A DNA stretch of 64,000 nt, from assembly GCA_024137785.1 (NCBI GenBank), contig JAHRHZ010000009.1, positions 21,018,239 through 21,082,238 of the forward strand, written 5' to 3'. The position numbers and the translations under genes were made by a program. Of the stretch, positions 12,270-19,946 are shown piece after piece. How positions within the stretch are numbered: the stretch's first letter is position 1; each line of letters starts with the position of its first letter. This stretch comes from Ginglymostoma cirratum. Its lineage: Eukaryota. The notes below the pieces were generated by a model. That model ran no database searches. It had not been told where the DNA came from and saw only the letters and a program-made list of their open reading frames with translations.

Positions 12270-12354
12270 TAAACAGCAACAAAAACACAAAATACACAAA
12301 CTGTAATTTAAACAATGGCATAAAATGAATTTAATGATCAGGCTATACTTTATT
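12270..12354 (-). terminator. Candidate intronic polyadenylation site in PCDH9 sense
   Basis: Minus strand AATAAA (12354-12349), preceded by AU-rich/TGTA sequence and followed by a GU-rich tract tttgtgtattttgtgtttttgttgctgttt. Confidence 0.45.
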
Positions 12355-15300
12355 TAGTACAGAAATCTGCAACCACAATATGTGCATACAGTTTTAAATA
12401 TAATAAGGGTAAAAACAGCAATAAAATAAATACAAATGTATAATAATCAGATATATTTAAATATACATTGTGATTCAAGCCAAAGTCTGTGAATACTGCA
12501 TAATAATATTTATAGATTCGCCCTTTCCAACACTGACATGACTATCTGACCCTTCTCAGTGAGTCCCAAAAGACCAGTGTCTTCAGATGCTGTAAAATGC
12601 GTGGTGCCTGGTTACTGATAAGCACGCCGTAAAATCTTCCCAGCCAGTCAGTGTGACACAGCTTAAGAGAGAAAAACTGGCTTAGAATACCCAAGCGCCA
12701 GGATTGGCAGCGAGTTTCAGTTTTCCCTGCTCAAGCAGGACTGAGAAGAAGCTGCTTAGATCGTCTCCTTAGGTACGTTCCTGCTGAGTTCCACGAATCC
12801 TTTCAACCCTCCCACAATCCTAGGGTTCTCTTATGGACAGAATCACTGATTAATATGATCTAGAGGACTCCCTAGCTCTACGAAGAGCAGATTTTAAAAA
12901 GGATGTTCACTCTTCCTTGTCTTTATTTTTACAAGAACAGTGGTTGAACACTCGCCCATAACATTTCAGCAAAAGCTGCATTTGCAAATAAAATATTTGG
13001 CAAAATCATTGGGTAATTTTACACCAGCATATTCATAAACACATCCAACTGCATAATGGAGTTGTATATTTCAACTATTCATCGAGCAAGTTACTATATT
13101 CACCAAGGCCATTGCAATATTGATGCAGTTCTGCATTGATGCGAGAGGTGCTGCATTTTCAGGAGAAACATCTTGGCAGAAGAATGAAGTGATTTCAGTT
13201 CCCACATCATTTTTCCTGACAGAGGACCAGGGGTATTGATTTAAACAGAGTAGGCATCAATTCATTGTCTCAAGGACGTCCCCTATAATGACATGTCCCA
13301 ATTAACCATGTCCCATAATCTTAAATGTGAGCAGCTGTTCCCTTTACCACATTCACTGGATAAATCTCTGTTTAGAGAGGCAGCATTCCAATTGCAGATG
13401 AAGCCAAGGCATGTACACTATGTTTACAGATATCTTTTCAACATACTGGTCATGAATTTCTCCGACAATTTAACTGTGTACTTGGTGAATTTCAAGTTGG
13501 GCAAGCGTCGGATGAGAGCCATCTTAACCCCTTTCAGAACAGACTTTTGCTCAGTTTTAACCATAATAAGTTTCCATCTCATACTTTTGGGAATACTGTG
13601 CGGAATTCTGCAAAAGAATAGAGCCCAATATTACTCTAATTATAGATTACTTAGAAATAACTTGTCATTACACAAAAAAGCAGCCCTCACCTGATTTTGA
13701 CATTTGCCTTAATTTTAAGTTAAAAGAAGCAGCAATTCAGATCTCGTCTACTGGATCATTCCCTGCCTGTTGTATGTGCCCGATTTAACTGATGTATGAA
13801 TGCTACCCATCCCAAATGAGGACTACAATGTTAATGCTTTGCAAATACAAAATCTTAATTCCTTACTTACATCACAAAGCTGTACTACCACAAGTGGCAC
13901 ATTAATGCAGCTGCCTTACCAAGAAAGAATGGCTGAAGGTAATTCTGTCACGACTATGTAAAATTCCCTTGAAATCACAGTGAAACTGGTTATTGCAGCA
14001 TTGCTAAAAGCTTTATTCAGCCCACCCTCTTACTCCTACAGATATATTCTTGCTGTTTCACCTCTGATCGTAACCATCAGTGGTGTCGCATTCTCTCACT
14101 CCGTTTTGGTAATTTGGCACCCAAAGATATCGGAAAATGTTGCTTAGCTGATGGAACATAAGTCCACCTCAGCATGCATTCCATGCAGATGAAATGATCT
14201 GAAAGGAGAACATCACTACTCCTAATGCAGATGAAGCAGATGTAATTTTCCCAATTAAGCCAACTTAAAATTGATGACATTTCACATTTAAATGAATTTA
14301 CTTCATACGTGCCTCTTAATTCGTTGAAGACCACTGACTCATAACGTATCTCAGTCTATGGTTTTGTTGGCCAAAATAAACTGCTCATATGGGTAATCCT
14401 AGCAAAGATCAGCCTGCGACTGTAAAAAGCACTCTAGGTTGGTTTGTGTTTCATTTGCTCAGTTTGTGGCAATAATCCGTGTTGCTTTTTTTGTACATTC
14501 ACTGGCCAAGCTGAGAGCTTTGACAGTCACATTCGCAAAACTGATCCTTTAAATGTGCAGAACTGTCAAATTTAACATTCACCTTTAAGTACTCTTAAAC
14601 TGTAGAAATCAAAACTGAATGGCATTTTGAAAGATTCCAATGTATAATCTACCATTTTAAAATTACATTATTCAAATGATCTAATAATTCTATTTTCTTT
14701 AAATACAGATGCTACACTGATACAATGTTTAGTTCAAATACATCAATAATTTGATCTTTAAAACAGCCATAATTATCTGAATCATCAGACGAGGGCTGCC
14801 TTATCTGCCCAAAAATGTAACATGCCCTAAAAAGGAGTTATAACTTCCAAGAAATTGTAGGAAATACAAGTCCTGATATCTGGACTATGCTACTAACAAT
14901 GCCACAAACCTCAAAATAGTCAAACAGCCTTAGTTGTGGCTGTAATAACATAGGTACATTTCACCCATCTCCCAATATGTCCAATGTAGATAACAATATG
15001 TGTATTATTAACATGCATCTCTTTGGAAATAGACATATTGGCCAAAGATTCTAAAAAAAGTTACAGTTTAGGGCTATGAAGGGAATCCAGTTTTCTGTTT
15101 AAGTTTTCTTTGCAACTAATATAGAAGGCAGTTAATAATATAACTAATGCCTGTTTTCTGGAAACTTGCATCCTGCTCGGCTTCATCTGCCACTGTGCAT
15201 CACATCTTTGAAAACAAGTCTCATTTTGTAAAGCATATCTTTCGTCAAATCATTATTTCTATTTTTGATTGAGAGTTTGACATACGTCTCATTTCAAAGT

Positions 15301-16913
15301 ATTGCTCACCATGCGCTGAGTCAGTGAGCAGGCAGCACTGCAAATGTCCAAACACACAGTAGTATGGGGATAAATATTTCACAGACCATAAAATATCTTC
15401 AAAACCCAAGCACATTACAATTTCTTTTTGGTTCTGTTGTACAAATTAGCTTCTCCTGTAACAAATCTTCCAACTACCTACATTTATCATTGTAAAATGC
15501 TTCAGAAACATGCGCTAACTATTCAGAAATCTTCTGACAATTGAAATGCTTCACCTCAATAGCTGAACTGAAAAACATCTGTACTGACTTTCACTTTGCA
15601 GTTCAAACACCTATCTTTTGTGAATTCAAACTCTGAGTTTCCACCAAGGGAAGAAAAGTAAACGGTTCAATGAAATTTTTTGCTTCACGGCTATGTTGTT
15701 GGAGAAAAGACTCTGATATGTATAGATGCATTTTGTACATGAATACAGACTCTCACTCACTCTCCTTGCCTGTTCACAACCTAGCTATTTTCTATTAAAT
15801 GTTATGTCTATGGACTGTACACTACACAACAGAAACTGAACACTTAATATAAATGTTTTGGTTTAATATAAATGTAGACAATAAAGATATTCAGTATGAC
15901 TGGGCCAAATTGTATCAATATTTACAACTTAAAGATGATCATTGACATAAGTTAATAGCATTATATTGGACCACAATCAGACCTTGAACATATCGTGCAT
16001 TCTTGCATTTTCAATCGATTTTGAAAATCAATTGTTAATTTTTTCCCAATCTTGCTTACTGCACATAACGTGGCTGTAGATGAAATAACACATAGCAAGG
16101 CACAAAGAAACAGCAGCGCAAGGGGTTCCTTATGTGACCAAAGCATCTCTATAACTACAAATAAACTAACTGTGCTGGTAAACTCTATGCTTGATAGTAC
16201 AGCCTGTTAATAACCAATCATGAAGCATGGTACAGTGCCACAAACGCTGATATGAAATAATTCAGAAAAGATTCAAAAGTACTCCTAAAGAGTAGTTTAA
16301 CCATTTTTTTTCACTCAACTTACAGTAACTGACAAAACAATTAGATGTGGTTCTCTAATTGAGAAGCATGTATCTGCAATGCTTCACTTGCACTCGGTTA
16401 TTGTTTTTTCTGTGTTAGTACATATGTTTCAAAGTTCATCACTAAACAAAACTACAGGTGTACTAATGTTCATCTGCAGATAATCATCAAACTACAACTA
16501 TCCGGTGCTTTCCAGTATAATCATTACTAAGCAACAGCTTTTCTTTCTTGCACCTTCCCCCACCATCTAGACTGCAGTTGGCATCTTGCCACTTGCGAGC
16601 AGAAAGTGTTCCAGTGCCATCTACAGGCCATGCCTTGTTTTCCTAATTTTAGACGCAATCAAGTAATTTGAAATCGGCTTAATTTAAATCTTCATTAGTG
16701 ATAAATTAATAGGCCTACACAAACAAATATTTGGCACGATAAAATAATAACTTTGTTGGTTTTCTAACCACTTCGTACTTTGGGTACTTGTGATAATTCT
16801 TTTCAGGGAAGTTTAATTTGCAATAGAATCATTTCTACAGATTTCTGCAGGTCACTGCTGTGCTTTGCCTTGTTTGTACTGCGAAAAATACAATTAGAGG
16901 CGGTACTGATAGA

Positions 16914-16934
16914 CTAGTAAAAGCTTTCAGTTAC
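16914..16934 (-). CDS. PCDH9: Intron read-through tail (VTESFY*) of a putative short PCDH9 isoform
   Basis: The frame continues past the donor as GTA ACT GAA AGC TTT TAC TAG, resembling the recalled human short-isoform tail VNEHFYW... Confidence 0.6.
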
Positions 16935-16937
16935 CTG
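16929..16937 (-). other. 5' splice donor of the PCDH9 large exon
   Basis: Minus strand CAG|GTAACT; the exon ends at 16935, at the same residue (HTRQ) as the recalled mammalian junction. Confidence 0.88.
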
Positions 16938-19900
16938 TCGGGTGTGCAATGGGCCCTTTGTCTTGAAGCCTCCTTGGGAGCTACACTCTGAGGCACTGAA
17001 GTGGTCTGAACTAGTGGAAGAGCGCTTCGACAGGGTGTCACAACCCCCAACGAAGGTGTTGTCCAAAGGGAGCTCCTGAATCACGTGATGCTTTTTTGCA
17101 GAAATAGGGGTGTCTGGCTTCAGATGAAAAGAGGGCTGTGGAGAGCCAGATTTGTAATGCCTCGCTAGGTCTGGGCTGTTGGGCTTAAATGTAGTTGGTG
17201 GTGTGCTGCCCCAGTCAAATCGCCCTATTGTTTGCTCCTCCAGCTCAGCTGGAAGGGTAATGGTTCCATTGATGGGTTCATGGGCAGGGTCATCAGGTTT
17301 GGATTCCTCAATGGTGACAAAGTTTAGAAGGGAACTCTTTGGAGATTTTCTTTTCTTCCTTTTCTTCTTTTTGTTCTGCTTGCACTCCTGATTGGGAGAC
17401 ATCCATTCAGCACCCTGCTTGTTCCTTTGCGTAGCCTTGAACCTTGAGGACTGCCGGCACCGCACCAATATTGTAACAAAGATGACCACAATCACTACCA
17501 TGGCTCCCGCCACTATGGCGATCATTATGGTAAGGTAATCCTCATTTTGCCAAGGCTGGGTGCCATCTCCAATGTTCTTATCTAGTGGAGTCTCCATTGT
17601 CCTCCGTATTAACTCATAGACATAGCTAGCATTGTTTACCGTATCATTTACATACAAGTAGACAAGCACAAGTGTGTGCAAGGGTTTTGGATAACCTAAA
17701 TCGCTGATGTTCACGACCAGACGGTGCAAGCCCTGGTCTACGGCAGTCGGTTTCTCCTCCAAGGTAATATTACCAGTCACAGGATCAATTCGAAACAAAC
17801 CCTTGTTATTTCCGCTGACAATGCTGTATTTGAGCTCTGCATTCATACCTGTATCAACGTCCACAGCAAACACTTCTGCCACCACAGAACCAGGTATGGC
17901 AGACAGGGGTACTAGTTTGAATGAAGAGTTGGAGGGTGGGTAGATTACAACGGGACTGTTATCGTTGACATCTATGACATTGATTGTGACTTTAGCAATG
18001 GAAGTGCGGACTGGTCTCCCCCTGTCTACAGCTTTAACTTCGAATGTGTAGGAGCTTTGCTGTTCTCTGTCGAATGATACGTTGGACCTTATCACACCAC
18101 TCAGTGGGTCCAGAATAAAATTGGCGTTGTCACCCACAACAGAAGCCATCACCTCTGCATTGGCCCCTGCATCCAGGTCGGTGACAGTAATCACTCCCAC
18201 AGTGCTGTACTTTGGCAGGTTCTCGGACACAAAGAACTGGAAGTGGTTGTGGGTGAATTTGGGGTTATTGTCGTTCTCGTCCAGCACGGTGACGATCACG
18301 GCCGCTTGACTCTGCAGCGGAGGGTTACCGCTGTCCCTGGCAGTCACGGTGAAAATGTAACGCTCCTGCTCCTCCCGGTCGAAAACCCGGGAGGCGGTCA
18401 GGACGCCCGTCTTGCGGTCCAGGTCGAAAAACGAGGCGTTGGGCCCCAGCTGGTAGACAATCTCTGCGTTCTTGCCGCTGTCGTCGTCCGTGGCACTGAC
18501 GGTGGTCAGGTAGAGGCCGCGGTGGTTGTTCTCGGGCACTGCCAGCTCGATTACGGGCTGGCTGAAGACCGGGGGGTTGTCATTCTCGTCCTCCAGCTTC
18601 ACCCTCACCAGGGCGCTCTGGTTGAGGCTGGGTTTGCCTGCATCTGATGCCACTATCCTGAAGGAGTACTGGTTGGTGCTCTCGTAGTCCAGGAAGGAGG
18701 AGGTTTCCAGCAGGTACTGGTTGTCATACACGGCTTTGAGGTGGAAAGGCACCTCCTTCTCAATGTAGCACACCACCTTGCCATTGACATCTGTGTCCCT
18801 GTCGGAGACGGTGATCAGGGCGATTTTGGTGTTGACCGGGTCTTTCTCCGAGAGGTGCACAGAGCCATTGACCGGGCTGATGATATAGCGGATGTCAATC
18901 CCGGGCGGGTTGTCGTTCACATCGGTGACATTGACGGTGACGGTGGCTCGGGCGGGGCTGGAGCTTCCGTCGGTCGCCAGCACGGTCATCTTGTGCAGCG
19001 AGACGTCCTCCCGGTCGAGCGGCCGCTGCACGGTGATGAGCCCGAGGCTCGGGTCCAGGGCGAAGTAGCGGCGGACGGCGGCGGGGGTCTGCGGGCTGAA
19101 CAGGTAGCGGAGCTCGGCGTTGGAGCCCACGTCGGCGTCGGTGGCGTGGAGCTGGATGACCGAGGTACCGAGGGGCGAGTCCTCGGGCAACTGCACCTCG
19201 AGCTGGCTCTCCCGGAACACCGGGCGGTTGTCGTTCACGTCGCTGACGGTGACCTGCAGGATAGCGGTGCTGGACTTAGGGGGCTCCCCGCCGTCTTGCA
19301 CCTTGATCTTCATCACGTAGGTATCCTTCTGCTCCCGGTCCAAGCCCCGTTGGACGATCAGCTGCGGCCACTTCTCACCCTCGGGGCTCTCCACCACGTC
19401 CAAGCCCAGGACGCTCTGCCCGTCTAACAGCTGATAGCGCTGCACGCCGTTGGCCCCGGTGTCCGGGTCGCTGGCCGACGGGATGGGGAAGCGGCTGTTG
19501 GGCAGTGTGTTCTCCGGGATGGAGATGTTGATGACCGGCGACGGGAACATGGGCGCGTTGTCGTTCACGTCCCGCACCACCAGCTTCACCTTGACCAGCC
19601 TGAAGTAGTCGTTGGGCAGGATCACCACCTCGATCTCGAACGAGCACTCGCTCGACCCCGACTCCCCGGCGCACAGCCTCTCCCGGTCGACCCGCTGCGA
19701 GCCCGTGTAGATGTCCCCGGTGCCGCTGGAGACCCGCAGCAGCGGCACCTCGCCCGCCTTGGACACCAGGCGGTAGATGAGGTCGGCGCCGCTGGCCGAG
19801 ATGTTCAGGTCCCGCGGGATGCTGCCGATCAGGATGTTCTCCGGCAGCTCCTCCTGGATGGTGTAGACCAGCTCCTGCGCCAGGGTACAGTCCACCGTCA

Positions 19901-19946
19901 GGCAGGCGACCAGAGCAAAGAGTAGGTAGAAATCCCGCACGTCCAT
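16935..19946 (-). CDS. PCDH9: Protocadherin-9 (delta-1 protocadherin), large first coding exon: signal peptide, EC1-EC7, transmembrane helix, proximal cytoplasmic region; spliced at ...HTRQ to exons outside the window
   Basis: ORF 16914..19967. The true start is ATG GAC at 19946 (MDVRDFYLL..., compare recalled human MDLRDFYLL). Seven cadherin repeats with PE, DRE, DxD and DxNDN motifs; [26 protein letters not shown]; polybasic KKKKRKKRK; tail ...[16 protein letters not shown] matches recalled PCDH9. A phase-0 donor CAG|GTAACT follows HTRQ. Confidence 0.97.

Follow-up and report, generated by a model that had tools for sequence, protein, structure and literature searches.

We consider it probable that the sequence just past the donor of the large PCDH9 exon in this shark is a decaying relic of an ancestral intron-encoded PCDH9 tail, and that the short isoform likely comes from a last exon 3.3 kb further downstream. 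The frame past the donor retains recognizable homology to the read-through tail of bony vertebrates on both sides of an in-frame TAG, but carries two separate lesions, and in a relative the codons after the stop have changed as neutral decay predicts. Coordinates below are those of the window, the whole 64,000-nucleotide stretch of DNA that was analysed.

Results

The PCDH9 locus and its splice donor

The window contains the large coding exon of PCDH9, which encodes the signal peptide, the cadherin repeats, the membrane segment and the first cytoplasmic part of the protein.

16935..19946, minus strand: PCDH9 large coding exon, from ATG 19946 to the donor, 1004 codons
16929..16934 (junction 16935/16934), minus strand: 5' splice site, CAG/GTAACT, after ...HTRQ

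Comparison of the encoded protein with annotated relatives revealed identity at 957/960 residues to each of the Stegostoma and Rhincodon PCDH9 proteins, 97% identity to those of bamboo and epaulette sharks, 85% to chimaera and about 80% to bony vertebrates; the cadherin repeats and a Protocadherin domain (PF08374) are present in P0204, which is 957/960 identical to the window protein. Since the window protein is closer by identity to PCDH9 (80-99.7% to 11 proteins) than to PCDH11 (60-61% to 2 proteins), we identify it as carpet-shark PCDH9. The locus is single-copy in the genome, and a PCDH11-like paralogue is located on another contig (C267 of genome G000). The downstream exon encoding RRVTF (CM3) lies on the same contig as the window, about 396 kb past the donor (G000:C9:20638688-20638888), in agreement with a preliminary description of this DNA, in which a form ending within the intron was expected to lack the motif.

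The donor is spliced: two contigs from run X1 depart from the window precisely at 16935, and every annotated shark isoform changes exon at this position. An internal acceptor before PQDEF in the RRVTF exon (L003), which bypasses the PP1-binding motif, is used in run X1 as well as in many shark and bony models. In the PCDH11-like paralogue (L002:1490-1520), the donor is at the same position and the intron starts with VIQRF, TAA and then CTGG, which faintly resembles F-Y-W with one base extra; this alignment is weak, being equalled by 225 and 229 of 5000 random pieces (about 4.5%), and is not used as support. Teleost PCDH11 short forms finish in a conserved tail of their own (ETALKPP...).

Homology of the frame past the donor to a read-through tail

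On the minus strand, the frame past the donor reads VTESFY, TAG, SISTASNCIFRSTNKAKHSSDLQKSVEMILLQIKLP (36 codons) and TGA, with TAG at 16916-16914 and the next stop at 16805-16803, exactly as first described.

16917..16934, minus strand: first six read-through codons, VTESFY (chimaera VTENFY, bony VKEHFY)
16914..16916, minus strand: TAG at the ancestral TGG (Trp) position, as aligned to the teleost-type contig L005
16890..16913, minus strand: post-stop relic codons SISTASNC (bony SISTAYNC; the relative in run X16 would read STTRSSNC)
16881..16889, minus strand: 1-nt gap against the bony frame, located to within this interval
16873..16881, minus strand: QYK in a shifted frame, as at the end of the chimaera tail (RIPQYK) and in the bony QY-stop
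16803..16805, minus strand: TGA that closes the entry frame after TAG, with no homology to the bony stop

Read across the stop, VTESFY-stop-SISTASNC is homologous to the bony-vertebrate tail VKEHFYWSISTAYNCPIHQY. The alignment of SISTAxxC after the stop, with TAG at the TGG position, had been proposed in the preliminary description and is now seen directly against L005, a teleost-type contig that was the sole match of a metagenome pattern scan, from which no shark DNA was recovered. The BLOSUM62 score of 34 between SISTASNC and SISTAYNC was matched by 0/119,303 background 8-mers from the non-coding window. Likewise, none of 5000 random intron pieces was as good as intron bases 22-63 against L005, nor was any as good as bases 7-63 (0/5000), and the similarity is gone past the bony stop, where bases 64-100 were equalled by 4683/5000 random pieces. 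A likeness that goes no further than the bony stop codon is what a former reading frame would leave, and the old frame is therefore the unit that has been conserved. Codons 8-15 of the window and L005 differ by four synonymous changes and one non-synonymous change, a synonymous excess that is biased, since most amino acids were fixed in the search pattern by which L005 was found.

Distribution of the tail among vertebrates

For the survey of tails, 383 proteins were gathered from hand-chosen clusters, with up to 15 members of each listed; 41 without a junction match were dropped, and the rest were sorted by source name or sequence. Among the matches listed, 29/167 bony PCDH9 proteins contained a V..FY(W/C) read-through tail, mostly as gene models or frame calls rather than demonstrated proteins, and four of these 29 were hybrid models running on. 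Trp was present in 28 of the 29 tails among the matches listed, the moray having W>C. The tail, which reads VKEHFYWSISTAYNCPIHQY in bichir and paddlefish and also occurs in lungfish, caecilian, Xenopus and teleosts, is nearly invariant from bichir to amniotes. Two proteins clustering with amniote PCDH9 (P0082, P0371) end in VNEHFYWSISTAYKCPVNQY; the human tail given in the preliminary description thus agrees letter for letter with amniote-type proteins, although neither of the two is labelled human.

The chimaera model P0200 ends in VTENFYWSTSPSFKYRIPQYK, with the Trp kept. The presence of Trp in the chimaera and bony tails indicates that Trp is ancestral and the shark TAG derived, which, together with an unchanged TAG in a relative, supports the lineage-specific nonsense change suggested at the outset. 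The read-through tail was found in 0/97 elasmobranch proteins (22 species) among the matches listed. Note that the elasmobranch, chimaera and bony counts are counts of annotations, in which an unannotated isoform is not the same as an absent one.

Two further features of these tails were observed. YxxPhi is a sorting motif, and Y-W-S-I fits it in 25/26 complete read-through tails, namely all 25 from bony vertebrates (P0004, P0145, P0160, P0245 and others), a fit that withstands both W>C (moray) and I>M. The motif is missing from the chimaera tail and from the NSAQ-type last exon described below (3 checked), and is cut by the shark stop; as a weak motif read from sequence, it is a lead only. 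Four ranoid frogs (P0353-P0355, P0363) have in common a different V-starting tail, VRFNECPDVLQHVSGWS, which may reflect a further turnover or come from an exon of its own, and Xenopus and Ranitomeya keep the FYW tail.

A second lesion and probable drift after the stop

A functional read-through isoform needs an open, conserved frame past the donor, and here the frame is interrupted by a stop at codon 7 and again by a 1-nt gap. The gap (16889-16881), which like the spliced last exon at 13607 was missed by the preliminary description, lies ~30 nt past TAG and puts the QY(K) end of the tail out of frame. Past codon 15, the window and L005 match at 11/18 positions with the 1-nt gap and at 5/18 without it, and the shifted frame scored better than the entry frame against 5/5 reference tails (14, 8, 10, 9 and -2 versus -7, -5, -5, -6 and -7, respectively). 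Reading through TAG would therefore not rebuild the ancestral tail end.

Alignment of four runs over 16300-16975 yielded contigs from X1 and X16 and none from X4 or X19. The relative in run X16 is represented by one contig of 239 letters (16712-16948, depth 2.5, kind guessed as RNA) with 4 gaps and 28 differing letters, 23 of which are listed, the rest being probably near the ends. No difference is listed at TAG 16914-16916, which is located 33-35 letters from the contig end, and a difference 32 letters from an end does get listed; there is also no indel in 16881-16889, where the length is the same.

In the 11 codons after the stop, X16 contained nine changes, seven non-synonymous and two synonymous, including the amino-acid changes I>T, S>T, T>R, A>S, I>L and R>P. 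Since 23% of the possible changes are synonymous, seven non-synonymous changes among nine are what neutral decay predicts (P 0.66). The post-stop bases differed between X16 and the window at 9/33 positions, compared with 13/137 elsewhere in the intron (Fisher P 0.017); six X16 changes fall within 11 bases and, in one shallow contig, may hide compensating indels or errors. X16 also differs at 16804 and 16805, so the next stop TGA is not kept. The window retains 7/8 post-stop residues, whereas the chimaera, with its frame open, has 2/8, which is odd though within neutral expectation: with half of the distance to X16 assigned to the window branch, 1.2 amino-acid changes would be expected there, and the single change seen fits neutral drift.

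A spliced last exon downstream of the donor

An alternative last exon is located 3.3 kb downstream of the donor, at 13607.

13557..13607, minus strand: alternative last exon, coding part, NSAQYSQKYEMETYYG then TAA, preceded by a pyrimidine-rich CAG acceptor
12323..13556, minus strand: probable 3' untranslated region of this exon, with AATAAA at 12354-12349, then CA and a G/U-rich stretch

The acceptor, a short in-frame reading frame with its stop and a poly(A) signal are all present here as motifs, and the peptide is 16/16 identical to NSAQYSQKYEMETYYG. Among the matches listed, NSAQYSQKYEMETYYG or a close variant ends 14/97 elasmobranch proteins (14 species), from carpet, cat, hound, mackerel and horn sharks, skates and a devil ray, and the same search, again among the matches listed, found this NSAQ-type exon in 0/9 chimaera, 0/167 bony PCDH9 and 0/69 PCDH11 proteins. 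No second copy of the exon was found in the genome.

Transcripts from run X1, which is at least 99% like the window, support the junction from the donor to 13607 in this one run. The mixed loose end of the two X1 contigs at 16935 is explained by the NSAQ exon and the PQDEF acceptor at 30/30 letters, compared with 24 and 23/30 for other exon pairs. The spliced contigs had depths of 21 and 31, contig depth being a poor measure of level, and intronic cover consisted of four isolated pieces of 151 letters each (depth 3-4), which leave TAG uncovered. The loose letters of X1 contig 5 (1285), if they represent the last exon, would place its end at 12323, 26 bases past AATAAA and before the G/U-rich stretch.

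Other exon-like matches were also found in the window. The segment 12827-12759 on the minus strand shows a 74% match to the tail of Hemiscyllium isoform X4, marking a further acceptor within the 3' untranslated region of the last exon. An exon of the ab initio whale-shark model P0214, ENKAWPVDGTGTLSA..., matches intron positions 16700-16560 on the minus strand by eye and is probably a prediction artefact. The segment 51097-51183 on the plus strand encodes a retrotransposon-like peptide with a stop that is 52% identical to an insert in Stegostoma isoforms X8/X9, which suggests an exonised repeat in those models.

Discussion

Alternative explanations

A read-through isoform ending at VTESFY might still be made and matter, leaving only the sequence after the stop as a relic, though we consider this improbable. 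VTE.FY is common to the window and the chimaera, but the first two of the VTESFY codons are constrained by the splice site anyway. Unspliced sequence crosses the donor in X16 and single intronic reads occur in X1, but at depths of 2.5-4, beside spliced X1 contigs at 21 and 31, these pieces may be pre-mRNA or DNA. A motif scan revealed three poly(A) hexamers in 13700-16913, and the nearest, ATTAAA at 16817, is a candidate signal for the VTESFY form; however, X16 carries a change in this hexamer (16814), and no G/U-rich stretch follows it. Among the matches listed, the isoform was found in 0/97 elasmobranch proteins, and the exact protein was absent from the collection.

It is also unlikely that the post-donor bases owe their conservation to a splicing role, such as a hairpin hiding the 5' splice site, with the protein likeness as a by-product.

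16902..16935, minus strand: predicted bulged 12-pair hairpin over the donor, not conserved

The predicted hairpin joins G/GUAACUGA to 16909-16902 at -10.8 kcal/mol (z -2.3, 4/200 shuffles; z -1.87 on 101 bases). However, it is lacking in the teleost contig (z +0.18, 105/200 shuffles), and introducing the X16 changes brings this structure to a score of 0.0 and leaves a best fold of -6.8. The nucleotide-level constraint considered in the preliminary description finds no support, given the excess of differences in the post-stop bases over the remaining intron, the mostly synonymous teleost differences and the end of teleost similarity at the bony stop, and we regard a splicing element as largely refuted already.

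Recoding of UAG to an extended tail, whether A-to-I editing turns it into UIG (Trp) or ribosomes read through it, had likewise been proposed, and we now judge it very unlikely. The stop differs from TGG by exactly A/G, appears to be common to the relative, and has its A closing the loop of the hairpin, where it is predicted to be paired (0.96); a precedent exists in hepatitis delta virus, discussed below. Nevertheless, owing to the 1-nt gap, recoding would give 36 further residues rather than the ancestral end, X16 has lost the stop that closes them, and the post-stop codons are not conserved there but show neutral-like changes. The hairpin is short, bulged and unconserved, no long duplex was found, and the X16 contig shows no A>G at the site, contigs being prone to drop rare variants. 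The best distal duplex (-34.7 kcal/mol) was matched by only 1/25 control sites, and so falls in the upper tail of a scan of 136 tiles confined to the window, but it contains large loops and, as modelled, provides no clear partner strand for editing. The stop context is UAG UCU AUC; to our knowledge UAG-UCU is not among the leaky stop contexts, which counts against ribosomal read-through. An elaboration in which UAG is a kept switch, with ADAR editing brain pre-mRNA within the donor-hiding hairpin so as to couple splice choice with the stop-to-Trp change and produce a new 37-residue shark tail, as a cellular parallel to the amber/W site of hepatitis delta virus, strikes us as very improbable too.

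That TAG is an assembly error or private variant is highly implausible: own-species reads give no cover at the site (X1 contigs leave 16865-16934 uncovered) and the locus has a single copy in the assembly, but the X16 contig, which is independent, has no difference listed at 16914-16916 and keeps the same length across the gap, and two separate errors would be needed.

Probable turnover of the short isoform

The reading of this stretch as a decaying relic would be explained as follows. The jawed-vertebrate ancestor may have made a short PCDH9 without CM1-3 by leaving the donor unspliced and terminating inside the intron, as a hybrid internal-last exon. A new last exon in elasmobranchs, supplying a short form likewise without CM1-CM3, would have relaxed selection on the old tail, which in this shark lineage would have been broken by TGG to TAG and the 1-nt loss and would now drift. 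That the relic can still be made out would be due solely to a comparatively recent loss and to the slow change of shark introns. We infer in this way that the tail is expressed in bony vertebrates, that its shark relic drifts neutrally and that the last exon replaced it in this order; the replacement itself is a correlation across lineages.

If this is true, PCDH9 presents a clean isoform turnover, with an old intron-encoded tail caught mid-decay. Both halves of the jawed vertebrates would appear to keep a short PCDH9 free of the PP1 site and to build it in two ways. The short form as such would then seem to count for more than the 20 residues at its end, and the little-studied read-through tail of bony vertebrates would be marked as worth testing. 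This is a modest comparative result that involves mostly ordinary decay and no new mechanism, and in which recoding is unlikely.

Comparison with known systems

No account of shark isoforms differing in the PCDH9 tail emerged from the literature searched; the short form of PCDH9 may be described in Vanhalst 2005, Redies 2005 and Liu 2009. NSAQ-type last exons are already annotated in the short RefSeq models of shark and ray PCDH9 (XP_048388778.1, Stegostoma; XP_055492669.1, Leucoraja), which draw no relation between this exon and a lost read-through tail.

Hepatitis delta virus recodes UAG to UIG at its amber/W site, as outlined in the available part of PMC12925331, and there, as in shark PCDH9, UAG is one A-to-G step from UGG. 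The virus has a rod-like duplex and needs its extension, whereas the shark sequence has a short, unconserved duplex and an extension that is frameshifted and drifting. Hybrid internal-last exons, described as common in long genes in the accessible text of PMC8769537, provide another parallel: the bony tail likewise lies past the donor of a long gene, at the start of a very long intron, and meets its stop 20-21 codons in. The shark sequence departs from this arrangement through its two frame breaks, and its intron yielded no conserved poly(A) site.

The delta-1 protocadherins (PCDH1, 7, 9 and 11) are a further related system. According to the available sections of PMC7339444 and PMC4081120, their isoforms have the same extracellular part and different cytoplasmic tails, the short forms lacking CM1-CM3, of which CM3 is the PP1-alpha site; these sections name tail-length isoforms for Pcdh1, 7 and 11X and not the case of PCDH9. 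PCDH9 resembles the other members in having short and long tails, and the route to its short form appears to vary by lineage, through intron read-through in bony vertebrates and chimaera and through a spliced last exon in sharks and rays.
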